A stretch of 64,000 bases of DNA from Mayamaea pseudoterrestris (GCA_027923505.1 BROI01000003.1:744001-808000), one strand, 5' to 3'; shown: positions 1-43,401, counted from the first letter of the stretch. The notes: a model not told the origin generated them from the sequence alone. Program-made: numbers and translations.

Positions 1-862
1 TTGCGGAAGCTAAGAAGCAAGGAACCGGACTATAATGCTCTTCGGCCGTACCTCGGATGGGTCCCGACTGAGCGCGTTCAACAGACTTTACGTCACACGG
101 AAGCATGGTATCATCTCAGCGCACACCCGCGATTACCATTTCGACACCTCACGAAATCACGATTTCCGGCCGCGAACGTTCAGCGGTTGCGCGAACTATT
201 CGCCACGGACACGATACACTCTGACACGCCAGCTTTGGATGATGGAATTCTAGGGCATGGGGGAGCTACTAAGATGCAGCTCTTTGTTGGACGAGAAAGT
301 TTTTACACGCGCGGCTACCCGATGAAGTCGGAGAGCGAAATGTCAAACGCGTTAGAGGATTTTATCCGCGAAGTGGGCGCTCCTAACGGACTGCTCAGCG
401 ACAATGCCAAGTCGGAGACTGGCAAGGCTGTGAGGATCTCTGTCGGATGTACAATATTCCTCAAGTGACCACAGAACCGGGTCATCAGAACAAAATCCAT
501 GCGAACGTCACACGTCGCACATTAAGCCACTGATGGAGAACCTCCAACGAGATTCGGGTTCGCCAGGCCATTGCTGGGTTTTGCTGATTAAATTCGTAAT
601 CATGATACTGAACGTCCTCGCGACGAAATCGCTGGGATGGCGCACGCCAACGGAAGTTGCGTTCGGAAATCTGCCGGATATTTCGCCTTTGTTACATTTC
701 AAGTGGTGGGAACCGGTCACGTTTGAGGCGCAGGGGAGTTTTCCCTCGGCGGTACGATCTGGCAACGGCCGATTCGTGGGCATCGCAGAGAATAGCGGTC
801 CGCACATGACTTTTCTCGTTCTGACGGACGACACGCTTCAGGCGATTCCGCGCTCCAACGTG
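1..862 (+). pseudogene. Copia integrase core, frameshifted
   Basis: ORF 1-468 carries the first two DDE aspartates. The continuation DLCRMYNIPQVTTEPGHQN / QNPCERH needs frameshifts near 434 and 491. ORF 533-928 carries the IN C-terminal part (GRFVGIAENSG...RSNV). Confidence 0.85.
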
Positions 863-1016
863 GTCTCGCGCAGCTACTTGTTACCACGAGAGTTGCCTTC
901 CTTCCCTGAGTCTGGAGGAGATTTCTGAAGAAGCTACACGCGCAAGCGAGCGAAATTTTGAAACTCCAGATCTCGCGACAGGACGCTACCATAGCACGCA
1001 TGTGACAGAAAGTAGT
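862..1016 (-). mobile_element. Inverted LTR-3'-end + PBS + leader fragment inserted in Copia pol
   Basis: The minus strand of 965-1016 reads actactttctgtcacatgcgtgcta-TGGTAGCGTCC-tgtcgcgagatctgga, closely matching the TRIM LTR end/PBS/leader at 5215-5267. The left boundary is approximate. Confidence 0.75.
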
Positions 1017-3340
1017 CACGACAACTACGAAGGAAACGACGACGAAACAATTCCGATGGCGAACCACGCCAACGTACCAGCGAAGTTCTTCAGAAGGGCT
1101 GAGCAAGAATCAGGGAATAAATGCCCTCTGTTCTCTCCAAGCGAACTCATCGGACGCACGTTCGTAAGGGAACACGAAAACGGTCAGAAAATGCGAGCGA
1201 CTGTATGCGAATATATCGAAGTACGCGATAACGAGCTACTCGAAACGACGAAAGGTTTCCTAATCCAAATGGGAGAGGAGCCAGCGAAAGACTTAATAAG
1301 TTACAACGAACTGTCGGATTTAATCGAACGACAGATGGACGAAGATATACGAAACGATCCGGCGACTCAGTGGGTATTCACGAAGGTAATCGGACACGAG
1401 CTTAATTTGAAACCGAACGATCCGACATACAAAGGAAGTTCAAGTAACGTTCTCGTCGAATGGACTGACGGAACGACGACGTGGGAGCCTCTCGCGATCA
1501 TGAAGAAGGACGATCCGATAACGATCGCAGAGTATGGACTCAAGCACGGCTTACTCGACAAGCCAGGATGGAAGCAGCTGGAGCATTACACTCGGAAGCG
1601 AAAGAAGTTTCGACAGATGGTAACAGCGGCGAAACGAAAATCGAAAGCAAACGGCGTACGCTACAAATTCGGCGTAAGGTTGCCGCGCAATTATAAAGAT
1701 GCGAAAGCTCTCGACGAGATCAACGGCAACACGCTGTGGACGGATGCGATTCGAACGGAATTAAATCAGATAAATGATTACGACACGTTCGCAGATCAAG
1801 GAGTCGGTAAGGTTATGCCGGCGCCGTGGAAACGAATAAACGTGCACATGATATTCGATGTCAAGCACGATTTGCGACGGAAAGCACGACTCGTCGCAGG
1901 AGGACATATGACAGAGCCGCCGAAGGATTCAGTTTACTCGGGCGTTGTGTCATTGCGAAGTCTACGAATGGTAGCGATGTTAGCGGAACTCAACGGTCTG
2001 GAACTGTGGGCAGCTGACGTCGGCAACGCATACTTGGAAGCGAAAACGAAAGAGAAGGTTTATATCGTGGCAGGTCCGGAGTTCGGGGAGCTCGAGGGTC
2101 ACACGCTCACGATCGTGAAGGCATTATACGGTCTTCGCACGTCAGGCGCACGCTGGCACGAGCACTTTGCAGACACGCTCCGCGACATTGGCTTCACGCC
2201 GTGTATCGCAGAACCGGACGTGTGGATGCGCGATAAAGGCACGCACTACGAATACGTTTGTGTGTATGTCGACGATTTAGCGATAGCGATGAAGAATCCG
2301 AAGGAACTAACGGATCTTTTAATTGAGAACTACAACTACAAGTTGAAGGGCGTCGGTCCATTGGCATATCATTTGGGCGCAGACGTTTGGCGAGACGACG
2401 ACGGCGTACTCTGCTTCGGAGCGAAGAAGTACGTCACAAGACTACTAGCGAACTACAAAGAAATGTTCGGCGAGGAACCGCGACCGCAGACAAGTCCACT
2501 ACGCGACGGCGATCATCCGGAACTCGACGAAACGAAAGAACTTGACGACGACGGAATTGCGAAGTATCAATCGATAATTGGTGCGTTGCAATGGGCAGTA
2601 AGTTTATGTCGATTCGACATTCACTGTGCTGTCATGACTATGGGGAGATTCCGAGCTGCGCCACGAGCGGGGCACTTGGAACGGTTGAAGCATATTTGCG
2701 GATACTTACGAAGATACCCGGATGGAGCGATTCGATTCAACGTTTCGATTCCAACGGACGAGCGATACGCGACAGTTGACAAGATGGATTGGGATTACAG
2801 TGTGTACGGCAAGATCTGCGAAGAGCTTCCGTGGAACATGCCCACGCCGCGCGGCAAGGCGGTGCGAATGTCAACGTTCGAAGATGCGAACCTGTACCAC
2901 GATTACACGACGGGACGGGCAGCGATGGGCATGCTACACATGTTGAATGGAACAGTCGTTGATTGGTTTTCGAAACGCCAAGCGACGGTCGAGACGGCGA
3001 CGTACGGCTCGGAGTTTGTAGCAGCGAGAGTGAGCACGGAGCAGATCATGGATCTTCGCTTCACGCTACGCATGTTGGGAGTTCCGCTCGACGGACCTTC
3101 ATGGATGTTTGGAGACAACAAGTCGGTAACGCAAAGCAGCAACCTACCGCACTCTAGTCTGACGAAGCGACACAATGCACTGGCATTTCACCGTGTACGC
3201 GAAGCGATTGCGGCGGGAATTATTAATTTCAACCACATCATGGGAACGACAAACCCGGCGGATGTACTTACCAAGTTTCTTCCACGGGCTACGGCAAGCA
3301 AGCGCCAAAGAACCTGCTCTTCAAGGAATCTAACTATTAG
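1017..3340 (+). pseudogene. Copia pol: chromo-like domain, reverse transcriptase, RNase H
   Basis: The frame of ORF 1002-3656 is open across RT and RNase H. The probable native C-terminus PKNLLFKESNY* (TAG 3338-3340, just before the PPT) lies in another frame, implying a frameshift near 3300. Confidence 0.85.
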
Positions 3341-3357
3341 GTATGACTTGAGGGGAG

Positions 3358-3670
3358 TTGCAGGATGCGAACGAAAACAGCGAAAATCGGGCAAGTCACA
3401 CCGAATGTCCGATAGGGTGACACAGCGGCACTCGCGGCTCACCACAGCCTCACGATCGCGTGATGCGTGGCAGCGACGGCTTCGAAGCGATTCAACAAGT
3501 ATATTGCTGAAACTAGTGCGATATAGAGTAGAAACAAGCAGACTTACTAAGCTTGAAGAGTTAAGAAAGCGATTTATTCGTCTCTCGTATTGTAGCAACT
3601 GCAAGCTTGGATTGGCCATCCAAGGACAGCTACAAGCGAAAGGTGCAACGATTTGATTTACAAGTTACAA
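3358..3670 (+). repeat. 3' LTR of the Copia element, probably 3'-truncated at the satellite junction
   Basis: Starts immediately after the PPT with ttgcaggatgcgaacgaaaacagc, similar to the TRIM LTR start tagcaggttgcacacgaaaaacagc. Ends where satellite sequence begins (3671). Confidence 0.7.
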
Positions 3671-4694
3671 TACGTCACGTGTTTCAACCAAATATATAAG
3701 CCTGGAATATGTGTTTGGGATAGCTAGCATGTTTATTATTAGGGGTCTTTGCATGCACCACAACCATGGCATCATGCATGTCCGGATATATCCTACCACA
3801 ACTAGCTACATGGTGCTACAATGTGTGGCCTTCAAAGACTACCCCCAATAGTCTTGTTCCATTTATTCTGTCCTGGCTATGCTTGGGGACACATGTGCAG
3901 TGAGATTGGTGCTTAACCATCATTCACAGCTCACATGTAGCATCAGTTGTTAGGGAGGATAAAGATCCACACAGTAACCAACTACAAACATGGTGCTACA
4001 GTGTGTGGCCTGCAAAACTACCCCCATTAGTCTTGTTCCATGAATTCTGTTCTGTCTATGCTTGAGGACATATATGAAATGAGATTGATGCATAACAATC
4101 ATTCCCAGCTCATATGTAGCATCCATTGTTTGGGAGGGCAGATGGCCACACAATAGCTAGCACCATGGTGCTACAGTGTGTGGCCTTCAAAGACTACATC
4201 CAATAGTCTTGTTCCATGAATTCTGTTCTGGCTATGCTTGGGGATACATATGCAATGAGATTGCTGCATAACAATCATTCCCAGCTCATGCGCAGCATCT
4301 GTCGTTTGGGAGGGCAGACGTCCACACATTAACCAGCTCCATGGTGCGATAACTTGCCCATGTCTACACCCAAATCACACCAGAATGGTGCCAACAACAT
4401 TATTTAGGTTGCGCTACAAGGTGGTATGCCTGGCTGGTGTCTCAGTAGACGGCTATGTGATTGGTGACAACTTTTCACCAGTCTCAGCCCAGAGATGCCT
4501 TGACATTCAATTGCCCCTATAGCATGCCATGTCTACACCCAAATCACTCCAGAATGGTGCCAACATCATTTTTCAGGCTGCGCTAGAAAATGGTATGCCT
4601 GGTTAATGTCTCAGTAGACTGCAATGTGATTGGTGATAACTTGTCACCTAACACGTACGTCACGTGTTTCAACCAAATATATAAGCCTGGAATA
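3671..4694 (+). repeat. Satellite-like block, one 985-bp higher-order unit with ~177-bp A monomers and ~169-bp B monomers
   Basis: catggtgc recurs at 3809, 3989, 4164, 4340; catgtctacacccaaatcac at 4359 and 4528 (related copy near 4906); tacgtcacgtgtttcaacc at 3671 and 4656. Confidence 0.9.
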
Positions 4695-4848
4695 CCCGGG
4701 AATCGCACCCGAGGCATCTCGAAACGTAACTATACTACCCCAGTGACACAAAGGTCCTCGCTCTATATAAAGGCTGAAACATGACTGGGGTGGAGTGTAC
4801 ACTACTTCGCGAGCCTGTCCTTGTCTTTGGACATCCACGAAGTTGTCA
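4649..4848 (+). mobile_element. Solo LTR (200 bp) with 5-bp TSD
   Basis: Flanked by TCACC at 4644-4648 and 4849-4853. Termini TAACA...TGTCA. TATA box TATATAAA at 4764-4771. Interrupts a B satellite monomer. Confidence 0.7.
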
Positions 4849-5033
4849 TCACCAGTCTCAGCCTGGCGATCCCTTGACATTCAATTGCCCATATAACATG
4901 CCTTTTCTACACCCAAATCACTCCAGAATGTAGCCAACACCATTATTCAGGCTGTGCTAGAGAATGGTATGCCTGGTTAATGTCTCGGTAGACCGCAATG
5001 TGACTGGTGACAAGTTGTCACCAGTCTCAGCCT

Positions 5034-5709
5034 TAGCAGGTTGCACACGAAAAACAGCAACCAGAGCGATACCTTTACTTGTCATAGTGCATGGTGCCTT
5101 GTATGCAGCATATAGTACACTAGCAGACGGAAAAGTAGCAGCGTGTTTAGAGGTGATATAGCCGGTTATCCTTGGTTCGATTCCGAGGTGCGCTACTTTT
5201 AACGGCATAGTGATACTACTTTCTGTTGCATACCTGCTATGGTAGCGTCCCTATCGAGAGATCTGGACTGAGGCTGCTGGTTCGAGTTGCGATCGAATCA
5301 AGCGAAGAAAAAGCAAAAATTCACTGGTTGCACGGGTTTGTCACGAACGAACGATGGGGAGTCGCGGACCCTGGGGAGTGCACAAAGATGCGCCGAGCCC
5401 GAAACGCCGCAGGAAAAACTGAAAAGTGACATTCCCCCGCGAGACGAAAATGCCAGCTGAAACGGAAGACGAGTTAGCACTATGACGCGCAAAGCTAGGG
5501 GAGTAGCAGGTTGCACACGAAAAACAGCAACCAGAGCGATACCTTTACTTGTCATAGTGCATGGTGCCTTGTATGCAGCATATAGTACACTAGCAGACGG
5601 AAAAGTAGCAGCGTGTTTAGAGGTGATATAGCCGGTTATCCTTGGTTCGATTCCGAGGTGCGCTACTTTTAACGGCATAGTGATACTACTTTCTGTTGCA
5701 TACCTGCTA
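5034..5709 (+). mobile_element. TRIM-like non-autonomous LTR retrotransposon (676 bp)
   Basis: Identical 206-bp LTRs at 5034-5239 and 5504-5709 with terminal inverted TAGCAGG/CCTGCTA. PBS TGGTAGCG at 5240, PPT aggggag at 5497-5503, 264-bp non-coding interior. Confidence 0.9.
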
Positions 5710-5982
5710 TATCATCATCATCCTCGGCGTCATCTTCGTGCCACATGACTGGCTCAGCAGCCTCCGCAACACGGTGGCGGTCCATGAACACGATGCCCGG
5801 ATTGGCCTTCTGTTGACGAGCGAGACGATGCACGCGCTCAATGACATCATCAGGCATGGGCAAAGGCGTAGCGTGCCCACGATTCAGAACTTTGCCCGAA
5901 GACAAACTGAGGAAATAAAACCCACCCTGCACATTACCAGTCGGGCGCAGAGCCAGCGCACCGATCGTGCGCGCCTGCATGT
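5710..5982 (-). pseudogene. Fragment of a second Copia polyprotein (post-integrase region) forming the palindrome spacer
   Basis: Translates MQARTIGALALRPTGNVQGGFYFLSLSSGKVLNRGHATPLPMPDDVIERVH, which I recognise as typical of diatom Copia pol downstream of the IN core. It does not match the element at 1-3670. Confidence 0.7.
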
Positions 5983-5993
5983 CATACCTGCTA

Positions 5994-6669
5994 TAGCAGG
6001 TATGCAACAGAAAGTAGTATCACTATGCCGTTAAAAGTAGCGCACCTCGGAATCGAACCAAGGATAACCGGCTATATCACCTCTAAACACGCTGCTACTT
6101 TTCCGTCTGCTAGTGTACTATATGCTGCATACAAGGCACCATGCACTATGACAAGTAAAGGTATCGCTCTGGTTGCTGTTTTTCGTGTGCAACCTGCTAC
6201 TCCCCTAGCTTTGCGCGTCATAGTGCTAACTCGTCTTCCGTTTCAGCTGGCATTTTCGTCTCGCGGGGGAATGTCACTTTTCAGTTTTTCCTGCGGCGTT
6301 TCGGGCTCGGCGCATCTTTGTGCACTCCCCAGGGTCCGCGACTCCCCATCGTTCGTTCGTGACAAACCCGTGCAACCAGTGAATTTTTGCTTTTTCTTCG
6401 CTTGATTCGATCGCAACTCGAACCAGCAGCCTCAGTCCAGATCTCTCGATAGGGACGCTACCATAGCAGGTATGCAACAGAAAGTAGTATCACTATGCCG
6501 TTAAAAGTAGCGCACCTCGGAATCGAACCAAGGATAACCGGCTATATCACCTCTAAACACGCTGCTACTTTTCCGTCTGCTAGTGTACTATATGCTGCAT
6601 ACAAGGCACCATGCACTATGACAAGTAAAGGTATCGCTCTGGTTGCTGTTTTTCGTGTGCAACCTGCTA
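5994..6669 (-). mobile_element. Mirror copy of the TRIM-like element
   Basis: Reverse complement of 5034-5709; LTRs at 5994-6199 and 6464-6669. Confidence 0.9.
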
Positions 6670-6854
6670 AGGCTGAGACTGGTGACAACTTGTCACCAGT
6701 CACATTGCGGTCTACCGAGACATTAACCAGGCATACCATTCTCTAGCACAGCCTGAATAATGGTGTTGGCTACATTCTGGAGTGATTTGGGTGTAGAAAA
6801 GGCATGTTATATGGGCAATTGAATGTCAAGGGATCGCCAGGCTGAGACTGGTGA

Positions 6855-7056
6855 TGACAACTTTGTGGATGTCCAAAGACAAGGACAGGCTCAGGCGAAG
6901 TAGTGTACACTCCACCCCAGTCATGTTTCAGCCTTTATATAGAGCGAGGACCTTTGTGTCACTGGGGTAGTATAGTTACGTTTCGAGATGCCTCGGGTGC
7001 GATTCCCGGGTATTCCAGGCTTATATATTTGGTTGAAACACGTGACGTACGTGTTA
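6855..7056 (-). mobile_element. Mirror copy of the solo LTR (202 bp)
   Basis: Flanked by GGTGA on both sides; reverse complement of 4649-4848 plus 2 bp. Confidence 0.7.
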
Positions 7057-8980
7057 GGTGACAAGTTATCACCAATCACATTGCAGTCTACTGAGACATT
7101 AACCAGGCATACCATTTTCTAGCGCAGCCTGAAAAATGATGTTGGCACCATTCTGGAGTGATTTGGGTGTAGACATGGCATGCTATAGGGGCAATTGAAT
7201 GTCAAGGCATCTCTGGGCTGAGACTGGTGAAAAGTTGTCACCAATCACATAGCCGTCTACTGAGACACCAGCCAGGCATACCACCTTGTAGCGCAACCTA
7301 AATAATGTTGTTGGCACCATTCTGGTGTGATTTGGGTGTAGACATGGGCAAGTTATCGCACCATGGAGCTGGTTAATGTGTGGACGTCTGCCCTCCCAAA
7401 CGACAGATGCTGCGCATGAGCTGGGAATGATTGTTATGCAGCAATCTCATTGCATATGTATCCCCAAGCATAGCCAGAACAGAATTCATGGAACAAGACT
7501 ATTGGATGTAGTCTTTGAAGGCCACACACTGTAGCACCATGGTGCTAGCTATTGTGTGGCCATCTGCCCTCCCAAACAATGGATGCTACATATGAGCTGG
7601 GAATGATTGTTATGCATCAATCTCATTTCATATATGTCCTCAAGCATAGACAGAACAGAATTCATGGAACAAGACTAATGGGGGTAGTTTTGCAGGCCAC
7701 ACACTGTAGCACCATGTTTGTAGTTGGTTACTGTGTGGATCTTTATCCTCCCTAACAACTGATGCTACATGTGAGCTGTGAATGATGGTTAAGCACCAAT
7801 CTCACTGCACATGTGTCCCCAAGCATAGCCAGGACAGAATAAATGGAACAAGACTATTGGGGGTAGTCTTTGAAGGCCACACATTGTAGCACCATGTAGC
7901 TAGTTGTGGTAGGATATATCCGGACATGCATGATGCCATGGTTGTGGTGCATGCAAAGACCCCTAATAATAAACATGCTAGCTATCCCAAACACATATTC
8001 CAGGCTTATATATTTGGTTGAAACACGTGACGTACGTGTTAGGTGACAAGTTATCACCAATCACATTGCAGTCTACTGAGACATTAACCAGGCATACCAT
8101 TTTCTAGCGCAGCCTGAAAAATGATGTTGGCACCATTCTGGAGTGATTTGGGTGTAGACATGGCATGCTATAGGGGCAATTGAATGTCAAGGCATCTCTG
8201 GGCTGAGACTGGTGAAAAGTTGTCACCAATCACATAGCCGTCTACTGAGACACCAGCCAGGCATACCACCTTGTAGCGCAACCTAAATAATGTTGTTGGC
8301 ACCATTCTGGTGTGATTTGGGTGTAGACATGGGCAAGTTATAGCACCATGGAGCTGGTTAATGTGTGGACGTCTGCCCTCCCAAACGACAGATGCTGCGC
8401 ATGAGCTGGGAATGATTGTTATGCAGCAATCTCATTGCATATGTATCCCCAAGCATAGCCAGAACAGAATTCATGGAACAAGACTATTGGATGTAGTCTT
8501 TGAAGGCCACACACTGTAGCACCATGGTGCTAGCTATTGTGTGGCCATCTGCCCTCCCAAACAATGGATGCTACATATGAGCTGGGAATGATTGTTATGC
8601 ATCAATCTCATTTCATATATGTCCTCAAGCATAGACAGAACAGAATTCATGGAATAAGACTAATGGGGGTAGTTTTGCAGGCCACACACTGTAGCACCAT
8701 GTTTGTAGTTGGTTACTGTGTGGATCTTTATCCTCCCTAACAACTGATGCTACATGTGAGCTGTGAATGATGGTTAAGCACCAATCTCACTGCACATGTG
8801 TCCCCAAGCATAGCCAGGACAGAATAAATGGAACAAGACTATTGGGGGTAGTCTTTGAAGGCCACACATTGTAGCACCATGTAGCTAGTTGTGGTAGGAT
8901 ATATCCGGACATGCATGATGCCATGGTTGTGGTGCATGCAAAGACCCCTAATAATAAACATGCTAGCTATCCCAAACACA
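7011..8980 (-). repeat. Two tandem copies of the 985-bp satellite unit (7011-7995, 7996-8980)
   Basis: tattccaggcttatata at 7011 and 7996; ORFs 7552 and 8537 are 985 bp apart with one aa difference; at least two SNPs between copies. Confidence 0.95.
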
Positions 8981-9219
8981 TTGCTTTACTATGCTCTCGG
9001 AAAGCCATCAATTACTTCTCAATTACTGCAATCTCTGGCCTCAACTTCTGTTTCATATAGACTAAAATTGTTGGCACCAACCCCTTAAATGGTTGCTTTG
9101 AAGGCCGGTGATGTTGTGACTGTGTCTACTGCTTGACAGTTTTTGTGCATGCGGAGCGCCAAAAGGTCTGCAGGCTTTGTGAAACCATTGATCATACCAC
9201 CACCCTGCCCTTCGGATGT

Positions 9220-9310
9220 GTTTGCTTACTCCGAATCTCCCTCTGAATTCTTAAAGTTCTTTGTAAAACTTGCTCCAAGGAACATGGCAATTGTCTTGAG
9301 TTGTCCACTG
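9220..9310 (-). pseudogene. Degraded fragment of an HA-domain gene paralog
   Basis: Minus strand reads QWTTQDNCHVPWSKFYKEL*EFRGRFG|gtaagc, versus QWTTRDPRHVPWSKRYEELQEFKQRFG|gtaagc in the gene at 12632. The splice donor is at the same position. Confidence 0.8.
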
Positions 9311-10074
9311 AGATCATCTACAAGTGTGCACCATTTTGTATCATGATAACTCCAGCTGCATCTTCACACAAGCTGACGTCATGTTTTTCTTTTGCATGCG
9401 ACCTTTTTCTTTTCACGAAATACCTTCTACCGGTACGACGTCTTTGCAAGCCGTGAATAGCGAGCGTCCCGACGGTTATAATTTTCCCGATGATGACGCC
9501 AGTACTCGTACAGTATTTATATACTTACGTCAGTCTTCCCACCTGGCTAACTATGATTGGTTGACGATCTCATTATGTCCGGAAGAACTTGGTCGATATG
9601 CGAGACTATTCCCACTATGCAGGTTATAGGGGGTTTTAGTATAAGCCAAAATGTACAATTTTCCGTGCGACGGTCTTCCACTGGCCGTTGAATGTTGAAG
9701 TGTATGATCGCTGACACCCATTCGGAGATGGAATTCGTCACTTCGTGATTTGCCGCGCGCGTGCCTCCAGTGCGGATTTTTCAAGCGCCGCATGGTGATT
9801 TTTACAATCGTGCCACCTCTCATTCCATAACAGGCGTTCACAAGCTTACAGGTATTCATCTTGAATCGACGGTACGTCGCCTTTCATGAGGATGAGCATG
9901 AAGTATTTAATACAATGATGAAATACGGCAGTCAACCGTAACATTGCATTGAACGTTTACTATAACAAAAGCTGCGACTTGATTGTCTCTCTCACATTCG
10001 CGGATGTTCTATCTCGTTTTGAAGCATTCAACACAGTCAACTGACTTATCAAACTACTACGCCAAGCCAATAAA

Positions 10075-12631: not shown

Positions 12632-14128
12632 ATGACGAATGACGACGAGAACGAGCTGGCATCCGCCAAGGCTGGAGACTCGGTTGCGCTCCTTGATACT
12701 GACGAAGAACCAGCACAAGGAACTGTCGGCGAGATTGACAATGAAGATGACCTGCACCAGAATTTAGACAACAAATGGAACGATGCGTTCGCTCGGTTGC
12801 TACTGTACATTGAGAAGCATGGAGATGCCTTGGTTCCAAATCGATACCAGGGGGATCCGCATCTCGGCAGCTGGGTTTCAACGCAACGCAGGCAGCACCG
12901 TCAATTATTAGAAGGCAAGGGGACTCCAATGACACAGGCACGAGCACGAAAGTTGGAGGAGGTGGGATTTCAGTGGACGACTCGCGATCCTCGCCATGTT
13001 CCTTGGAGCAAGCGCTACGAAGAACTTCAAGAATTCAAACAGAGATTCGGAGTAAGCAAAGGAAATCCAATGACTATTCGGAAAGGATAATCATTTTTGC
13101 TCACGTTAACATTCTCTTCAATACTTGCAGCATGCACAGGTGCCCATTGGTTGGAAGGTAAGCTAAACACAACATCCGACATTACGTCTTCTTGCTCGCC
13201 GTAGATTTTGATTAGCACTCACGACATCATCATCACCCTTTTCACTCTCACTCAGGAAAATGTGCCGCTCAGCAACTGGATTTCTACGCAGCGACAAGTG
13301 AGTATGGGTAGTGACTTTATCATCAGTACATAGTGACAATTGAGACTCAACATGACGCAACCATAACAACAGGAGTATAAATTAAAACTCAAGGGTCGGA
13401 ACTCACGCTTGACCCAGGAACGGATTGAGTTACTTAACAAGGTTGACTTTGTTTGGGAGGCTCAACGCGGCGGGCCACGTCGGCAGGAGCGAGCGACAGT
13501 TAGTGTCCCGGCGCAGGCCCATCCAGCCCAAGCCCGGAACAAGACACCAAAGGTTGATTACGCGCAAATGATGACAGGCGCCCAGCAATTTATGATGCCC
13601 GGAGGCTTCTCCATGATGCCTTTTGCCATGCCACCAGGCATGATGATGCCAGCAATGCCACCTCCTGCGCAAGCCAACGAAGTGAAGAAAGTTATCAAGG
13701 ATGGCGAAGAAATGGCAACAGCTGGAAAGGAAGAAGGAGATACAAAGGTGGACGATGCGAGCGCCAGTGCGAGCAAGTATCCATACTACAACCCACACAT
13801 GATGATGAACCCTCAGATGATGGCTGCGATGGGCTGGCCTATGATGCCGGCCGGGACGTCTTCATCAAGCCAGCCGATGGCAATCGGCTTTTTCCCAATG
13901 GCTGCGCCATACATGATGGGCTGGCCGCAGGCGACGCCAGCGGCTACGACCACTCCGAGTGGAAACGTTGGCACCATCGAGACGAAGCGGAAAGCCGAGG
14001 TGGAGATCGACACAGAAGAAGCCAAAATAGCAAAGACAGAAGACGCTGGAGTCAAAGACAACAAGGAAGAAAACCTTATCGAGGCGCCTGCTGTCAGTGA
14101 CAATTTGGATCAGGGGGCAACTGTTTAG
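12632..14128 (+). CDS. HA domain protein, tandem paralog
   Basis: Exons 12632-13051, 13131-13157, 13256-13297, 13373-14128; two HA repeats and an M/P-rich tail. Confidence 0.88.
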
Positions 14129-14383: not shown

Positions 14384-17300
14384 TTAGTTCTTGCATTCGT
14401 CAACAACTTTGCAGCACTTGTCGCACTGCTTCGTGCCGACAGCCCATGGTTCAGGCGCGCATCCACCCTTGGACTCACCCTCGTAGCATAGGTAGGGCGC
14501 TCCTCCGCCAATTGGGCATAAATTCATCTTTGACTGACAAATATCCTTTTCGCAAATGGGGCAACTGTCACTATCGTCCTCTTCATCAGATTTGGATGAA
14601 TGGCCACTGCTGTCTTTGTCCACCGAAGGCGCAATCGGATGTTCCTTGCAGGCGCTAATTTCGCAACATGACGAACACTGGCCGTGCAAATCCCAAGGCA
14701 CCGACGAGCAGCCTCCTCTGCTTGATCCGCCAGTGCAAACATACGTCTTCAAGTAGCGAGGGCAGCGATTCAAGAGTTCGTTCTGGCATTCCGACTCGGT
14801 ACATGCTCCACATTGAGGAGTTTCTGCCGTCACCGAATCATCGTTAGCCTCAGCCGGATCGCAAGCACCGCATTCGTGCGGGTTCTCAATGCCGGCAACT
14901 TGACCACATGCCTCCGTTTCTGACTTTCCTTCTTGCCAAATGAGCCATTGTATTCTCTGACGGCATGAGTACAGACCAGCAATGGTGTCCAGCACAAAAT
15001 CGGTACAGCTCGCGGGCCTTCCGCAATCTGTCAAGGTAAATTCCGACGGCGGCTTAGGCTCATCTCCCAAATCGTTTCCTCTGTTCCGGTTGAGTTCCAG
15101 AGGCGTAACCGCCGGACGTGTGGCAATGTACCACAGTGTGTTTGTGAGCGAGTGACCATCACCTGCAGGGCCTTTGAAGGCCTCGGCCGGCATCATTTCC
15201 GTCTTGTTCAGAGCCAGCTTCTGATGCCCTGCCGTTGCAAGAATTGCCTGGACACCAACTCCCCAACCAGTCTCGGTACATCCTTCATTGTCATAACAGC
15301 TGTCGGACAACGAATGATACATCATCTTCGCCCATTCAGCGCCGTCACGCGCCTCTGAAATAGCTGTGATAGGCATGAGCTGAATTCCATATGCAAGGTA
15401 TGGAGCGCTTCCAAACCATGTTTGGAACTGTGTCATCGTTTGCCAAAGCATACCGACAGCAAATTCCACGTAGTTCTGGGGATAGATCTTGATATTGTCG
15501 TTTCCTCCTCTAATGATATGCCAATACATTTTTGTCGATCGAAGCTCGGTCGCAGTCGCGACCAAGCCAGCCGCATACACTTCACGCGCTGCGCTCGTCA
15601 GCTTTGTATCATGGGCCTCTTCCCCGACAGCAATCATGACTTTACCATAGAGGGCGACGCCTTCGTACGCAGCAACAGCCTCGCTAGATGACTCTTGATT
15701 CTTGCCGTTCAGGTAGAGCATAGCAATACCACTCGCCCATGAATTGCCTTGATACCAGTCCTTTTGTCGCCAGCTTGGGAAATAATCGTCATCATCCGAC
15801 GGATTGGCAATGTCTCGGATAAGAAGGAGAACATCCTCGAAGTGCTCACGTGCCCAATCATGGTCGAAATGCGAAAGGATCGCGGCAGCGTAAATCATGT
15901 ACCCATAATGAAAATGATGATCGTTGTAGAAGCCTGCGAAGGTGTGCTAAATCGATGAGACAGATCTGTCGCATACAAAATGTATCGCGCAACAATAAAC
16001 TTACCGTTACCAAAATCAAGACCAGGATCCGTAAATGTCGGACAGTCGGGAAAGCGATTTCTACAGTCTCTGGTTGATTCGTCAAAGTCACAGCCGCAAC
16101 TCACGAGGCCACCCCACTCCGAATCATACACAAAGGGTGTGATGGCACTTCCATTGACCCAAATTTCCACTGCGCTACGTAGCTCAGACACAGCATTGTC
16201 CATGTCCTTAGATGACGGCAGCGAAATGCGGTTGCAAACGTCTGAATAGAGAGCATTTTTCCCGTTGCATATCTCGATTGTTTCTTCGGCAATTGCGAGA
16301 ATGCGCCCAAGCTTGGCAAGGCGCTTGCCCGAAAAGTACGTGTCGCCGGCACCCTTTTTGTAGTACTTGGGAAGTGTGAATTGAATGTCATCCTTTAAAC
16401 TGTCCGCCAAGGACTCCATCGCCCAAGGCGCCGGTGGTCGAATGGCTCGCATGCCAATATCAGGTACATCTTCGTCGATTTCCCACTTCGCCCCACGAGT
16501 GAGACAGGCGGGCCCAATCATTGAATGCACGCAATAAATTTGAGAGTCAAATTTTGGCATGGTTTCGAACAAATCATAATGATGGGGCAAGGCGAACGTA
16601 ATCAACTGACTGTTGCTCACATCAGCGTCATCATGATCAGGCGACATGCGCTGCACATCCCAGTCAAATGTCAAGGCAATCTTGTCCTTGCTTTCGTCCA
16701 CGGCGTAGCTAAATTTGGCGTCGGGTCCAGGGTAGTAGTTGGAATGGTTTCGGAGAATGTCGCCATACAAACCTTGGCCGAGCATGAGAGCGCTCGGGTG
16801 CATCAATTCCTGATGACAGTAAATAGGGTTGCCGCCGGTACTGCAGGACTTGAGCCACGCGACACGCACCACAAGTGGCTTTGTCTTGAAATCATCACGT
16901 GCGTCGACCGTTCCCACCACCTGCAAGCTGAACCCAGATTCCTTACTGGAGACGCACCGAACATTGACAGGCTCTGAAAAGAAAGCCAGCCATGAAAAGT
17001 CGCTCTCCGAAATAAGCATTTCGACTTCTCGTTCAACACGAAACGTCTTTGAATCGTCGCACTTGATTTTGTGTTGATCAACAATGGGATCGGCGGCCAG
17101 CGACTTGATCGAGTTGATGGTGGGACGAATGTGCTTGCCGTCCTTAGTCTTGGCTTCAATGGCATCATATACCATGGTAACGTAAGGCATTCCCTTGGCG
17201 ATTGATGCATGCATCGGAAAGTCGTTCTGTACCGGTGAAAGAGTGTAAAGAAATTAGCAAACCAGTATATGCGCCACAGAGACACGCAGCATTCAATAAT

Positions 17301-18137
17301 ACGTACCCATTCCAGTGTCACGCTCAAGCTCGACATGTTTCGAACAAAGTATTGGTTGGAAAGAATCTTTTCAATTTCACTGTCGCTACCGTCACTACTT
17401 CTGTCGCTGTGTGAACTACTTTTATCACGCTTTTCACCATGATGATCAACTCCAGCGCCAAGAACCATGCCGTATTCATCCATGGAATAAATCTGCACAA
17501 TAGATGTTGACGCAGCAATGTGATTTGCAAAAAACTGAAGGCCAGGAATGGCTCCTGCCATGTCAATCAAGTAGGGAATCGAATATACGCGGTTGAGACC
17601 TGATGGTTCGCCGTCGGAGGTCATGAGTAAGTTTTGATACCACGAGTTGGTGGGAAAAACTCGAGATTTGCCGGAATGCTTCTCGTCGTGAAAGAGAAAC
17701 TTGGGCGGGCGAGAATCCTTGGGACGCTTGAAGGCAGCGAGACCAAGATCGTGCACAGGATCCTTATTTGAAAGCGGGATGGCTCCAGTCGAAACATGGT
17801 GAAAGGTTTGCGGAATGAGCGAGTGCTTTGGTGGGACATCCGATCCTTCGTCTTGTTGCTTGTCGCTTCTTGCATATCCAATGGCTCCGATGAGCGTAGC
17901 AAAGATAAGCACTGCCACAACGGCACGTCGGCACTTTTTCGTCGTCTTGCCGCCTTGACTTTCGTCAGCCCACCATGCACCGTTTCCTTGGCTCCCCTGA
18001 GGTCGAGCAGCCGAATTTTGAAAGGAAGTTCCGTTGGAGCCGAGACCAGGCTCAGTGTCGGCGAGCAAACTCTTCGTTGAGACCTCATCGGTGAGATTTG
18101 GCGATGGCAGAAGGAGCCGACTCGTTTCGGACGGCAT
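14384..18137 (-). CDS. GH81 endo-1,3(4)-beta-glucanase, type II membrane-anchored, with C-terminal Cys-rich repeats
   Basis: Exons 18137-17307, 17226-16005, 15933-14384. Motifs FPTNSW, DTYFSGK, FYNDHHFHYGY (across the intron), NQESSSEA. TM segment AVVAVLIFATLIGAIGY. Confidence 0.92.
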
Positions 18138-18827
18138 GACTTGCTGTTGTTGTCGGAGAAGTATACTCACTGATTGACGTCTTCTTGCTCGGAGACCTGC
18201 TTGACGAGAAATTCAAGTTAATTTCTCAAATAATGGCGCAGCAATGCCGATCAATAATATTTGGGTGGTCTTGGTGCAAAGATGCGAATGGAATCGACGA
18301 CGAAATGCGATATCATGGATGATGTCTTTCAAGAAACGGCAGGTGGCCGAGCGCGCCGGCCTGGTTGACTGACGCACTTTGGTTTCCCCGAATTACGTGT
18401 GTGCCACGTGGCAGATTCAGGAGCAACTGCGACGTCTTCCGTCAAGCAGCTTTAGCTATCCATTGCAGATGACAATTAAGAAAGACTGTCGTCAGTTAGT
18501 TGTATCAAGCTACATACACACAAGCCCAAACAATAAGCGAAGCATGTTCCAGCTAATGGCAAGCCTGCTACGTTACCTACCGATAGACCACCAAGGATGA
18601 GTGAATAACAAAGAATCGTTAACTTTGTAGATGTAGCAGACTCCTTCATTGTGTCGATACCAAAAGGGAATATTGATTTATGTCTATGTGTGTTGTAGCG
18701 TATTATCTATGATATGCAATGTTGGACATTACTAGGCGCAAATAAGAACCGAAAAGGTAGCAAATGAACATGCGAACAGCCTGTCGAAGCACGAGGACGA
18801 GGCATCGAAGGGCTCGAAAACACAACA

Positions 18828-19727: not shown

Positions 19728-19799
19728 TTCCTGGTGGCGCAATGGTAGCGCGTGACACTCCTAATGTCAAGGTTGCAAGTTCGAGTCCTGCTCAGGAAA
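19728..19799 (+). tRNA. tRNA-Arg(CCT)
   Basis: Acceptor TTCCTGG/TCAGGAA, D arm GCGC-AATGGTA-GCGC, anticodon arm TGACA-CTCCTAA-TGTCA, T loop TTCGAGT, T6 Pol III terminator at 19802. Confidence 0.92.
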
Positions 19800-20775
19800 C
19801 ATTTTTTACTTTATCTACCGGTAGTATGATTCTAAAAGCATGAAGTCATCCTCGAGTATAAGGAAAAGAGCGTGCATGCCCTGTTGTGCGCAATCTATGT
19901 TGCGCACGTCAAGGTTTACTACATGGCCAACATGTTTAAAATTGTCAAAGCAAGCTGCGCCAAGTGCCTACCGTAGATATTGCCCCTGATTACTTGGATG
20001 CGCACAATGCGCGTGGCAGGTACTTTGGCGCGGCCAAAGCCTTTTATACTGTCATTACAAAGAATACGAAGCGGCTCTTTCCAAATGCGATTACTGGCTT
20101 GCCTCGAGTCCTGGCGTCAAAGGAGGATGCTAATGAAGCTAGGTGGGGCGGAGTTGTTCCTGTCACAAAAATGTTTCTTTCGACGCTCGATTGACAGGCT
20201 AAGGTTTGGATTGCGAACGACCTTGCCGGACTCTTCTGATTCTGAGTCGGGCTCTAATGCGAGTGTTGAGTTGTAGATTGATGGGGCACACTGGTCGCAG
20301 TGTGGCAGCATCAGTAAGTGTATGTCACTACATGCTGTTTGTGCTTGCAGACAGAATGTAAATCCGTACACTAAAATAATGAGATTATTAACTAGCGCTT
20401 TAATACAAAAACAACCAATCCCGTTACGTTCTATACTCGCCACGCTAGCGCCCTTTCCTTTTTCGCGAGAAAAGGATGCATGGCTGCAACGCTCAATCAC
20501 CCGACTGGCTTATCAGTTTTCGTTGATGCATTCATTTAATGCACCATCTAAACGTCATTCAGCCGTGAGTTTCAATTGATTATCAACAAGCACGATCCTT
20601 TCCTTTTATTCCCAATTCGAACACCACAATGCATCTATAAGGCATCATAGTGAAGGACCTGCTGGATCAATCCGGATCACTTCAACGCCAGCAGCGCATC
20701 ATCGGAGGTGCATGATCCAGCAGGCCCAGCCTAGGCCTACTAGAGACCAGAGACTGGGCAATTGGTCTGCCCGGC

Positions 20776-41133: not shown

Positions 41134-43401
41134 ATGAAGCGACGCATCTTTCAATCGTCGCAGCGCAGACACATGGCGCACCTCGTTTCAATGCTAGCCA
41201 TTTTCAGCGGTGCCCAATATTCCGTCACAGCATTCATGCCTTCGCCTATTGTACAAAGGCATCCCGTCAAGTTTGGGACTTACTCGGGTCCGTCGCTGAT
41301 ATCGCTCTTCGACTCGCTTCCAATCAATTCTGATCCTTCCTTCTGGAACGCAACAACGAACCAAACTGTGAATCAAACGGTGAATCTGACAAAAATTGAG
41401 CCTGCAAGCATTACGCCGACTATTCTGCTGGATTCCAATTTACTATTTCAGGATAGCCTTGCAAAGAAAAAGAAGAGATCATTGTGGAAGCCATTAAAGG
41501 CCATTTTTTCATTCCTTCGAAGAAAAAAGAGTCCACAAGCAAGACATTCACAACAGGCTGGGAGCGCACTAGTCAATGCTACATCATCGATGAATGCTTC
41601 CACTTCCTCATTGCCAGCAGCAAGGCTAGTGAACGTAAGCAAGGCCGTTTTCGAGTCTAGGAACAAACGTAAGGTTGTTGCTGCGCCTACGAACGAAAGT
41701 GAGGCTGTCGTTCTGCCACCGGAAGAAAGCAAGGCAACAGCTATGCCTACGGAAGAAAGCAAGGCAACAGCCGTGCCTACGGAAGAAAGCAAGGCAACAG
41801 CTATGCCTACGGAAGTAAGCAAGGCAATAGCCCTGTCTACAGGCGACAGCAAGGCAGTCGTAGATGCACCAACAACAGCAGTCAAGAAGCCTCGCGGTCG
41901 CATTCGACGTCTCTTTCGACGCATTCAGCAATTTGCCTTCCTCGGTTGCGCCTTGTTTATTGTCTCGCCATTTATTCAAGGAGAAGTATCTATTTTTAAC
42001 CAGCCTTCTGCGCCAGCGCATTTGAAGCAAACGATTAGCCAGCATTATAATAGGCGACCACGTAACGATCGGACGCAAGCTACGAAACAGGATCTTCCCA
42101 AACAGGAAGCTGCTGCTGAAGACGGTAATAGCGAGGACGTGCATACCCAGGATGAGCCGACGATAGTTGAAAAGGCAATTGGAACTCCTCGTCCACAATC
42201 ATCCACTGCTATTGCTACTGAAGATAAAGCAAGCACAATGCAAGCTGATCAATTGGCAATGTCATCAAAGAGTGCTGACATATTGCAAGAGCGACGCGCC
42301 ACGGCTCTAGCTTTTATCACTGAAGCCGTGCAAAAGACTGGGCCAAGCGTCGTTCGCATCGACACGGAAACGCACATGCTCGATCAACAGGAAGGTCCGC
42401 TCTTGGCTCATCCACAGTCTCCACTGGTACAGCAAGGGCAGGGATCGGGTCTCATATTCTCGAGCAGTGGGTTGGTGTTGACGAATGCCCACGTAGTGGA
42501 TGGAGCTACTAAAGTGACGGTCACGCTTACAGATGGCCGCGTCTTTCAAGCGCAAGTCAAGGGAGTTGATGAAATCGTAGATATTGCAGTTATTCAGATA
42601 ATGCCGGTTGGTACTGGAGAAAGGAGTGTTGAGAATTTAAATCTTCCAGTGGCAGATCTTGGTGACAGCGACAAGCTCAGTGTGGGCCAGCTTGTGGTGG
42701 CAGTGGGTAGTCCCGGTGGACTTGACAATACCGTGACCATGGGAATAATATCGGGGTTGGAGCGCTCTTCCACTGTTGTCGGCATACCACACAAGAAGGT
42801 TCAGTACATTCAAACTGATGCGGCCATTAATCCTGGAAATTCCGGCGGCCCACTCGTCGACGTGGCAACGGGTCAGGTGATTGGAATTAATGCTGCTATA
42901 CGAGCGCACATGGAAGGGACCAGCTTTGCCATTCCGGTCAATCGAGTCCGCGATATTATGCATGATCTGGCAGAAGGCAGGCAGGTGCAGCATGGTTATT
43001 TAGGGATATCCATGGCGACGTGCACGCCTGACTGGGCACGGCAAAACAATTTACAAGCCGACGGCTCGCTGCATCTTCCAGAAGTGCATGGTGCGCTTGT
43101 CGCCAAGGTGTTTCCTCGAACTCCCGCCGACAGGGGAGGTCTAAGAGAGAATGACGTGGTAATACAAATTGGTACCAAGCGCGTTATGACGTCCGATGAT
43201 GCGCGAAGAATGATTGATGAGGCTCCTGTCGGAGAAATACTGACTGTCGTTGTCATGCGGAACAACAGAGAAATGCGCCTCCAAGTAGAGCCTGTTGACT
43301 TGGCGACGCGGCTAAAGCAAGTGCGAGAGGAACGGCAACGACAATTAAGTCAGGATCGCCTGCAATTTCAAGAGCTTGGGCCCTTTCGCTTGTACAGGTA
43401 G
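41134..43401 (+). CDS. Deg/HtrA serine protease with PDZ domain, probably plastid-targeted
   Basis: GSGLI, LTNAHVV, DIAV, TDAAINPGNSGGPL, C-terminal PDZ; signal VTA-F. Start is 41134 or 41173. Confidence 0.92.
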   Translation: MKRRIFQSSQRRHMAHLVSMLAIFSGAQYSVTAFMPSPIVQRHPVKFGTYSGPSLISLFDSLPINSDPSFWNATTNQTVNQTVNLTKIEPASITPTILLDSNLLFQDSLAKKKKRSLWKPLKAIFSFLRRKKSPQARHSQQAGSALVNATSSMNASTSSLPAARLVNVSKAVFESRNKRKVVAAPTNESEAVVLPPEESKATAMPTEESKATAVPTEESKATAMPTEVSKAIALSTGDSKAVVDAPTTAVKKPRGRIRRLFRRIQQFAFLGCALFIVSPFIQGEVSIFNQPSAPAHLKQTISQHYNRRPRNDRTQATKQDLPKQEAAAEDGNSEDVHTQDEPTIVEKAIGTPRPQSSTAIATEDKASTMQADQLAMSSKSADILQERRATALAFITEAVQKTGPSVVRIDTETHMLDQQEGPLLAHPQSPLVQQGQGSGLIFSSSGLVLTNAHVVDGATKVTVTLTDGRVFQAQVKGVDEIVDIAVIQIMPVGTGERSVENLNLPVADLGDSDKLSVGQLVVAVGSPGGLDNTVTMGIISGLERSSTVVGIPHKKVQYIQTDAAINPGNSGGPLVDVATGQVIGINAAIRAHMEGTSFAIPVNRVRDIMHDLAEGRQVQHGYLGISMATCTPDWARQNNLQADGSLHLPEVHGALVAKVFPRTPADRGGLRENDVVIQIGTKRVMTSDDARRMIDEAPVGEILTVVVMRNNREMRLQVEPVDLATRLKQVREERQRQLSQDRLQFQELGPFRLYR
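41714..41860 (+). repeat. 30-bp coding minisatellite (PTEESKATAM, about 5 copies)
   Basis: ggaagaaagcaaggcaacag repeats at a 30-bp period. Confidence 0.9.

Follow-up and report, generated by a model that had tools for sequence, protein, structure and literature searches.

A near-perfect 4.4-kb palindrome in a repeat nest of the diatom Mayamaea pseudoterrestris, with scars at its centre that point to DNA repair

Within the 64-kb window (the whole stretch of Mayamaea pseudoterrestris DNA that was analysed), a long inverted repeat abuts a truncated Copia-type retrotransposon. Its two halves, 3671-5714 and 5989-8034, gave a 2046-nt alignment with 99.8% identity. Cut back to the ends of the elements, they define the arms listed in Table 1, which are ~99.9% identical and differ by a SNP (4839 vs 6864) and by two added bases at 6893-6894; both differences sit within one 200-bp segment, the insert at 4649-4848. 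An earlier note on this DNA had described a palindrome with arms of ~2.04 kb that differ by a SNP and a 2-bp indel; alignment recovered the same arms, and the differences matched exactly. All 16 inverted pairs of at least 150 nt in the window belong to this locus, the sole long inverted repeat there, and a chance origin is excluded. The sequence is confirmed to contain a repeat nest duplicated in near-perfect inverted form over ~4.4 kb. Within each arm, a 176-bp satellite and a ~170-bp repeat are accompanied by an insert of 200 bp and an entire, inward-facing TRIM of 676 bp, and none of the arm components recurs elsewhere in the window.

Table 1. Features of the palindrome and its surroundings, in window coordinates.
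Feature	Position	Strand	Remarks
Copia-type pol ORF (RVT_2), left flank	825-3670	+	Pfam RVT_2, E=1.1e-25
Left arm	3671-5709	+	reverse complement of 5994-8034 except for one SNP and one 2-bp indel
39-bp piece	3671-3709	+	identical to 4656-4694, part of the insert's opening 46 bp
176-bp satellite, about 3 units	3795-4347	+	mirror copies at 7358-7905 and 8341-8890
~170-bp repeat, 1.8 units	4306-4648	+	strongly CpG-poor
200-bp insert in the 170-bp repeat, candidate solo LTR	4649-4848	+	TATATAAA near 4764
Further unit of the 170-bp repeat	4849-5033	+	cut by TRIM insertion
TRIM, 676 bp	5034-5709	+	LTRs 5034-5239 and 5504-5709, identical, 206 bp each
13-bp direct repeat CATACCTGCTATA, left copy	5699-5711	+	LTR end plus TA
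Filler, Copia pol fragment between integrase and RT	5712-5982	-	271 bp; protein match
Perfect 22-bp palindrome	5983-6004		axis between 5993 and 5994, exactly at the TRIM LTR terminus
Right arm	5994-8034	-	TRIM at 5994-6669 (-), then arm repeats in mirror order
Outer 985-bp unit, additional tandem copy	7996-8981	-	differs at 8342 and 8655 from the two other copies

The satellite is present in 3.0-3.1 copies per block. Logan contigs, all DNA-type, from four of nine sequencing runs (X1, X2, X4 and X6) were compared with the window, and the ~170-bp repeat family appeared as very many variant contigs in X1 and X2. Alignment to the 170-bp repeat showed that the 200-bp insert is bracketed by direct repeats of TCACC (4644-4648 and 4849-4853). 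Its boundary is ambiguous, as the nine bases ahead of the right TCACC resemble the 170-bp unit's own end, and no LTR homologous to it was found elsewhere in the 64-kb window. Of the arm contents proposed previously, the satellite and the whole TRIM stand; the solo LTR, flanked by TCACC and with no second copy seen, is a candidate.

The TRIM has the termini TAGCAGGT...ACCTGCTA, with 8-bp inverted ends, and a core of 264 bp. A PBS-like TGGTAGCGTCCC lies directly after its 5' LTR (5240-5251), and a purine tract, ...AAAGCTAGGGGAG, directly ahead of its 3' LTR (5504). The element lies on the plus strand in the left arm and on the minus strand in the right arm, so that, by the positions of PBS-like motif and purine tract, both TRIMs point inward, in agreement with the earlier claim of one whole, inward-pointing TRIM per arm. 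In size it conforms to the TRIM class (LTRs of about 100-250 bp, a short non-coding core and a whole element under about 1.5 kb), as it does in its identical LTRs, its TGG... PBS-like motif, its purine tract and its lack of coding capacity; in contrast, its termini are TA...TA rather than TG...CA. No ORF of at least 100 aa lies wholly within one TRIM. Two ORFs overlap the element only partly: one at 5298-5711 (-), which passes the left TRIM by 2 nt, and one at 5911-6405 (+), which begins in the filler. A full-text literature search for the TRIM term together with "diatom" returned no title or abstract containing either term.

No cognate tRNA for the PBS was found in the window, whose sole tRNA is a tRNA-Arg at 19728-19800. 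An apparent resemblance of part of the TRIM LTR to a tRNA was unsupported, as ARAGORN placed no tRNA in 3000-9500. A search of 3300-9300 against Rfam at E<=1 yielded two matches, both to one Pseudomonas sRNA model below its gathering score, on the repeat-unit hairpin, and both spurious; that search gave no tRNA-like family and no hammerhead, and for want of the latter we rejected a retrozyme. No target-site duplication is visible around the TRIM: its 5' flank reads ...CAGCCT, and on its 3' side the palindrome axis and the filler follow directly, the expected 3' target-site copy and the remainder of the 170-bp unit being absent. Since this flank was lost through rearrangement, the missing duplication is uninformative about the TRIM family.

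At the outer left end, the flanking Copia breaks off at 3670, 14 bp past its stop codon. Contigs from three of the four runs (X2, X4 and X6) follow the window to 3670 and then diverge for 255 letters with one common consensus, a continuation that matches nothing in the window. The 39-bp piece that begins the arm is the leftover of a preceding tandem unit. The arm opens 7 nt into an incomplete copy of the 200-bp insert, in a blunt junction with truncated Copia, and the proposal that the arms end at LTR termini holds for the inner ends and fails at 3671. On the right, the outer 985-bp unit is repeated in tandem, and this second copy, overlooked in the earlier note, carries the repeat past 8034 to 8981. 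The left outer and right-inner units are identical (986/986), and the right-outer unit differs from both at 8342 and 8655. The tandem duplication therefore predates the inversion. The flanks on both sides are unique and single-path. Anatomy, junction sequences, filler origin and the relative ages of the copies are shown by the data.

The inner ends of the arms coincide with the TRIM LTR terminus. Between them, a 13-bp direct repeat brackets the filler, its right copy (5983-5995) forming the first 13 bp of the perfect 22-bp palindrome. Dividing about 900 position pairs by 4^13, we estimate a probability of ~1e-5 that a 13-bp direct repeat would arise here by chance. Both the 22-bp palindrome and the direct repeat had previously gone unnoticed. 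Read on the minus strand, the filler matches residues 690-779 of a 1477-aa RVT_2 polyprotein (P0121) at 87 of 90 aa (97%), which bears out the Copia-derived spacer claimed before. Its length is 271 bp between the direct repeats and 284 bp, the earlier figure, between the LTR termini. The stretch 5712-5985 lies within 2-5-kb contigs of X2, X4 and X6 that diverge from the window on both sides. These matches identify the filler as a fragment from inside a multi-copy Copia, bounded on each side by a breakpoint. A derivation from the flanking Copia was rejected, the two sequences being unrelated. A metagenome scan with the 22-bp palindrome found one locus (L001), which shares those 22 bases only and was dismissed as an unrelated chance hairpin.

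The scars at the centre point to an origin in DNA repair. We consider it somewhat probable (roughly 55%) that the locus is real and, in evolutionary terms, a very young local fold-back duplication in a repeat nest of this pennate diatom, once a perfect palindrome, which broke at its centre and was patched with captured DNA. We infer the order and mechanism of the breaks as follows. The ancestral locus, in right-arm orientation, would have comprised unique flank, 176-bp satellite, 170-bp repeat with its 200-bp insert, and a young TRIM. A tandem duplication of 985 bp would have come next. A break precisely at the terminus of the TRIM 3' LTR, followed by fold-back copying of ~2.04 kb, would then have produced a perfect palindrome, whose new arm was joined bluntly at its far end to truncated Copia. 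Finally, the centre would have broken, through a staggered cut or because hairpin tips were opened off centre, and 271 bp from another Copia would have been captured in its repair. In the process, 10-13 bp of the LTR end would have been duplicated, and the 22-bp palindrome would have remained next to the filler. A spacer of this kind should make the palindrome more stable.

Known systems offer parallels. Fold-back inverted duplications arise through replication template switching or from hairpin-capped breaks (MMBIR/FoSTeS-type events; breakage-fusion-bridge). The locus resembles these in being a local inverted duplication with a spacer, in having blunt or microhomology junctions and in containing an insertion templated elsewhere; it differs in that its arms measure just 2 kb and there is no sign of larger amplification. 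Its near-identical inverted arms, short asymmetric centre, mini-palindrome at the old axis, duplicated bases that fit off-centre hairpin opening or a staggered cut, and filler captured from elsewhere in the genome are also those of centre-modified palindromes, such as the human PATRR sites. Whereas the latter have been studied in mammalian cells and transgenes, this would be a natural diatom locus, represented by one sequence, with its axis at an LTR terminus. Centre-break revision of palindromes and cruciform resolution, which gives hairpin-capped ends that are afterwards nicked open, are both described in PMC3300023; at human PATRR sites, end joining follows the formation of such ends. A single multi-step template-switching event could also have yielded the same sequence.

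A different concern is that only one arm is true, with or without the tandem unit, and that its inverted copy came from a chimeric or fold-back long read or from assembly merging, which we regard as unlikely, if far from negligible. Template-complement read artefacts are adapter-centred, spacer-free palindromes that extend to the end of the read, whereas here a blunt junction with unrelated Copia DNA closes the arms after 2 kb. The right side is also asymmetric, and the spacer is genomic Copia rather than adapter-like. The 13-bp duplication beside a perfect 22-bp palindrome is a repair-type footprint, three independent false junctions within 2.3 kb would be needed, and unique, single-path flanks on both sides are unexpected for a simple read fold-back. 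In favour of an artefact, PMC9724779 describes, for a published M. pseudoterrestris assembly, Nanopore ligation reads, two assemblers and a merging of their outputs; if the window comes from such an assembly, merging or chimeric reads could have created duplications. Near-identical arms are the expected result of polishing a false duplicate, and the confinement of both arm differences to one 200-bp segment is odd for random divergence. Window letters differ from X1 and X2 contigs at several covered sites (e.g. 4940, 7414 and 9337), so that the window consensus is not simply reproduced by these runs. Among the 32 contig pieces listed (there are 6453 more), none spans the structure or bridges 5710/5712 or 5985/5994, which carries no weight either way. 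The bin 8441-8707 has zero cover in all four runs, probably an effect of assigning repeated contigs to the other copy. X1 word depth was 825 at 3834-4109, 486 at 4665-4848 and 165-415 for right-flank contigs; the ratio of 1.7 falls between the 1.5 expected with an inverted copy and the 2.0 without, although depth is not copy number. A Foldback-type transposon, in which tandem subrepeats make up the long terminal inverted repeats of a mobile element, would account for the subrepeats in arms around a central loop. We rejected it as extremely improbable: symmetric outer termini and a target-site duplication are both lacking (the left abuts truncated Copia and the right continues as tandem copy to 8981), the arms hold a nested TRIM and another insert, and the window offers no further copies of their components.

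The earlier note had proposed a hairpin-RNA silencing locus. On this reading, a transcript runs through both arms, the dsRNA is cut by Dicer, and the siRNAs so made act in trans to silence related LTR elements as well as the TRIM family, which seems to us distinctly unlikely. The long near-perfect inverted repeat should be able to fold as dsRNA: RNA across the centre is predicted to form one uninterrupted stem (-947.8 kcal/mol, 1106 nt), and both TRIMs face inward by the positions of PBS and purine tract. TRIM pieces form separate contigs in all four runs, and the X2 LTR contig, with a word depth of 3938 vs 55-65 for flank contigs (depth not being copy number), hints at many possible targets. 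The diatom background given for this proposal is backed for Phaeodactylum tricornutum by PMC4247016, which reports genes of the Dicer-like, Argonaute and RdRP kinds, the presence of 25-30-nt small RNAs on LTR elements that are methylated, and silencing when inverted repeats are introduced as transgenes; a paper on Dicer dependence is among the references of PMC11910954. The PBS and LTR signals said to be common to the TRIM and the neighbouring Copia come down to a single PBS-like match (980-991) that is antisense inside the Copia ORF and does not bear the claim out. LTR transcripts normally terminate in the 3' LTR, and a full hairpin would therefore require read-through, which counts against this reading. 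Observed/expected CpG (TRIM 1.06, filler 1.07, flanking Copia 1.57) reveals no CpG loss, which weighs little as the palindrome is too young. Repair explains the palindrome structure fully, so no selected function is needed. Any transcription is likewise our inference; a read-through transcript from an inward TRIM or the insert could incidentally feed siRNA production via long dsRNA. Natural hairpin-RNA siRNA loci include maize Mu killer, which reportedly silences MuDR, Arabidopsis IR71 and the Drosophila hpRNA genes. With these the locus shares a long near-perfect inverted transposon duplication, a short loop and candidate homologous multi-copy targets, whereas they are defined by transcription, Dicer products and trans-silencing and the locus is known from sequence alone. 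We hold it very unlikely that this is a Mu killer-type diatom locus, that is, a TRIM-terminated fold-back, stabilised by its Copia spacer and transcribed from inward LTRs, with Dicer-dependent siRNAs that shut down the TRIM family in trans; in this scenario the LTR's 8-bp inverted termini would have nucleated the palindrome, and the element would be the builder of its own silencer.

Present evidence supports regarding the locus as a structural curiosity rather than a demonstrated silencing locus. Should it prove an artefact, it would be a useful warning for long-read diatom assemblies. If real, it is a clean natural case, outside animals, plants and yeast, of a perfect palindrome born at a retrotransposon end, and the same locus exemplifies a palindrome tamed by centre breakage and filler capture; since so little time has passed, all its junctions can still be read. 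To our knowledge, silencing RNAs from long inverted repeats in diatoms have so far been shown with transgenes only, and a real locus would provide a ready means of testing whether long inverted repeats that are endogenous to a diatom also give rise to silencing RNAs.

The 4.4-kb palindrome described in the earlier note is present, and the observation stands as a whole with the corrections made below. A repeat search of the window returned two pairs of inverted arms (3671–4810 with 6895–8034, and 4811–5714 with 5989–6892), which merged in blastn into a single 2046-nt alignment of 99.8% identity. Cut back to the ends of the elements they contain, the arms span 3671–5709 (plus strand) and 5994–8034 (minus strand). 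Their alignment reproduced the two differences previously claimed, one SNP (4839 versus 6864) and one 2-bp indel (two extra bases, 6893–6894). Both lie inside the 200-bp insert, no more than 30 bp apart (4810–4839 / 6864–6894), and this clustering may reflect chance, faulty polishing or a short conversion tract. All inverted pairs of at least 150 nt in the 64-kb window (16/16) fall in the palindrome locus. No component of the arms was found elsewhere in the window, the sole outside match (9221–9315 versus 12966–13060) being beyond the arms.

The innermost element of each arm is a terminal-repeat retrotransposon in miniature (TRIM). It carries two identical 206-bp LTRs with the termini TAGCAGGT...ACCTGCTA, a PBS-like TGGTAGCGTCCC at 5240–5251 and a purine tract immediately 5′ of the 3′ LTR. 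The positions of the PBS and purine tract place both TRIMs facing the palindrome centre, in agreement with the inward orientation proposed from the sequence. No ORF of at least 100 aa lies wholly within the TRIM; the minus-strand frame at 5298–5711 overshoots its end by 2 nt. The 200-bp insert, previously called a solo LTR, has sequence features compatible with that candidate assignment and an ambiguous right boundary, and no homologous LTR was found within the window.

Components of the left arm, in window coordinates
Feature	Position	Remarks
39-bp piece	3671–3709	Identical to 4656–4694
85-bp stretch	3710–3794	
176-bp satellite, ~3 units	3795–4347	
~170-bp repeat, 1.8 units	4306–4648	
200-bp insert	4649–4848	Interrupts the ~170-bp repeat; TCACC on either side; TATATAAA near 4764
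Further 170-bp unit	4849–5033	
TRIM	5034–5709	

PBS and LTR signals had also been thought common to the TRIM and the neighbouring Copia, a truncated element with a pol ORF to the left of the palindrome. This was not borne out. The minus strand at 960–1020 does resemble the TRIM LTR end, the PBS and ~25 nt further, with TGGTAGCGTCCT at 980–991. This stretch is antisense in the coding region, between the integrase and RT parts, where the plus strand is read as protein. Because the match at 980–1016 is antisense within the Copia reading frame, it is not the flanking Copia’s primer site. Contigs from two public sequencing runs (X4 and X6) have the same arrangement, and the TRIM-like stretch thus belongs to that Copia lineage.

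The right side of the locus is asymmetric. The outer 985-bp unit (3710–4694 on the left) occurs on the right as two tandem copies, at 7011–7996 and 7996–8981. The left and right-inner copies match at every position (986/986), and the right-outer copy has 2 sites at which it differs from them both; thus, the tandem duplication predates the inversion, and it is the left arm that arose as the copy. The claim that the arms end exactly at LTR termini holds for the inner ends, which lie at the TRIM LTR terminus, but not for the outer end. Position 3671 is 7 nt inside a partial copy of the 200-bp insert, and a blunt junction between 3670 and 3671 joins it to the Copia-type element (RVT_2). In three of the four runs compared (X2, X4 and X6), the flanking Copia continues past 3670 with a different, common sequence, and that continuation is absent from the window. 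The X4 and X6 contigs with this continuation may represent the locus before it was rearranged.

At the centre lies a perfect 22-bp palindrome (5983–6004) whose axis, between 5993 and 5994, falls exactly on the LTR terminus. A 13-bp direct repeat, CATACCTGCTATA (5699–5711 and 5983–5995), borders a 271-bp filler at 5712–5982. Because contigs of the filler’s parent match through 5985, the CAT of the repeat may also come from that parent, so that the duplication is 10–13 bp long. On the minus strand, the spacer encodes 90 aa, of which 87 are identical to residues 690–779 of an RVT_2 polyprotein of 1477 aa, annotated as a hypothetical protein from Mayamaea pseudoterrestris; the match places the window in that pennate diatom species or a near relative of it. 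In X2, X4 and X6, 5712–5985 is embedded in 2–5-kb contigs whose sequence departs from the window on both sides; the spacer is therefore a piece from inside a dispersed element, broken at both ends and captured as filler. Protein match and contigs alike uphold its earlier description as a Copia fragment. The left-flank Copia was rejected as its source, the two sequences being unrelated.

The expected 3′ target-site copy of the TRIM is missing, as is the remainder of the 170-bp unit. These two absences, together with an axis exactly on the LTR end, lead to the simplest history, whose four steps we infer from the junctions. A break at the LTR terminus would have been followed by fold-back copying over 2.04 kb to yield a perfect palindrome; more speculatively, the 8-bp inverted termini of the LTR may have aided the fold-back. 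The far end would then have been joined bluntly to the broken Copia, and finally the palindrome centre would have broken and been repaired with the captured Copia fragment. A 10-bp staggered cut across the axis would give exactly the duplication seen; alternatively, two hairpin tips opened 2 and 8 nt off centre would give an identical one. Such a history of the centre matches a known behaviour of long palindromes, centre-break revision, in which cruciform resolution yields ends capped by hairpins, which are opened by nicking and then joined (PMC3300023).

We consider the palindrome probably real in the genome. Template-complement read artefacts are centred on the adapter and extend to the read end. 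Here, the arms run for 2 kb and then meet unrelated DNA at a blunt junction, the right side lacks symmetry with the left, both flanks hold ordinary sequence, and the spacer is genomic Copia with a repair-type duplication adjoining a leftover perfect palindrome, all of which make an assembly artefact unlikely. An artefact would be conceivable if the window stems from an assembly of the kind described for this species, in which Nanopore ligation reads were assembled by two programs and the results merged (PMC9724779). Nine runs, none of them catalogued as RNA, match part of the window. When contigs of four of these (X1, X2, X4 and X6) were compared with the window, none among the matches listed spanned the structure or bridged its diagnostic junctions, which carries no weight for or against. 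At a few of the sites they cover, X1 and X2 contigs disagree with the window. In the unique right flank (9047–9604) these contigs fall into two alleles, for example with five linked differences at 9506–9574, where each allele has about half the depth, and an alternative stretch of 40 letters occurs between 9079 and 9172. The region is thus heterozygous, and the palindrome may be on one haplotype only.

A single multi-step template-switching event could also have produced the same sequence. A foldback transposon seems to us very improbable. The locus had further been proposed as a source of silencing hairpin RNA. RNA from 5300–6405 is predicted to fold into a single unbroken stem whose loop is the filler (−947.8 kcal/mol), so that any transcript spanning the centre would be a substrate of the Dicer type. 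P. tricornutum small RNAs are described as mostly 25–30 nt and derived from both strands of methylated LTR elements, and its genes are silenced by inverted-repeat transgenes (PMC4247016); a study of Dicer dependence is among the works cited by PMC11910954. The silencing reading is neither supported nor refuted by our analysis, and we regard a working hairpin-RNA locus as quite doubtful.

CpG observed/expected is 0.18 at 3710–4655, which comprises the 85-bp stretch, the 176-bp satellite and units of the 170-bp repeat, and 0.30 in the further 170-bp unit (4849–5033), with normal GpC in both; it is 1.06 in the TRIM, 1.07 in the filler, 1.57 in the flanking Copia and 1.06 in the rest of the window. 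The low CpG hints at long-term cytosine methylation of the repeat family rather than of the palindrome itself. The 170–176-bp unit lengths are near the 180-nt small-RNA periodicity described for methylated regions of P. tricornutum (PMC4247016), which may be coincidence.

Unit ends of the ~170-bp repeat (4169–4702, 4849–5033 and mirror copies) form a hairpin, GGTGACAA.TTGTCACC. Thousands of variant contigs match this repeat, 4870 being placed in X1, of which 4417 fit two places. In X1 and X2 its summed word depths are hundreds of times the flank values; those in X4 and X6 are far smaller. No copy was found in the remaining 58 kb of the window. These observations suggest that the repeat belongs to a satellite or MITE-like family that is very abundant, probably clustered, and strain- or species-specific in its abundance.

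The remaining window is rich in ordinary genes, encoding GH81, a UCH-domain protein, an ABC transporter, an FAD oxidoreductase, a trypsin-PDZ protease and an RNase T-type exonuclease. Domains of glycoside hydrolase family 81 extend across overlapping reading frames at 14384–18212 (minus strand), where the domain scan covered ORFs 14384–15946 and 15895–17253, and 16803–18212 is from the ORF list; this points to short introns or frameshifts. A 30-nt tandem repeat of 4.6 copies (41713–41856) lies within the ORF with trypsin-like and PDZ domains.

Our best reading, to which we give a probability of about 0.55, is that the palindrome arose very recently by fold-back duplication, that its centre was later revised, and that it is a by-product with no selected function. 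It would belong among kinds of structure already known, as palindromes arising from fold-back repair and as possible hairpin-RNA loci.
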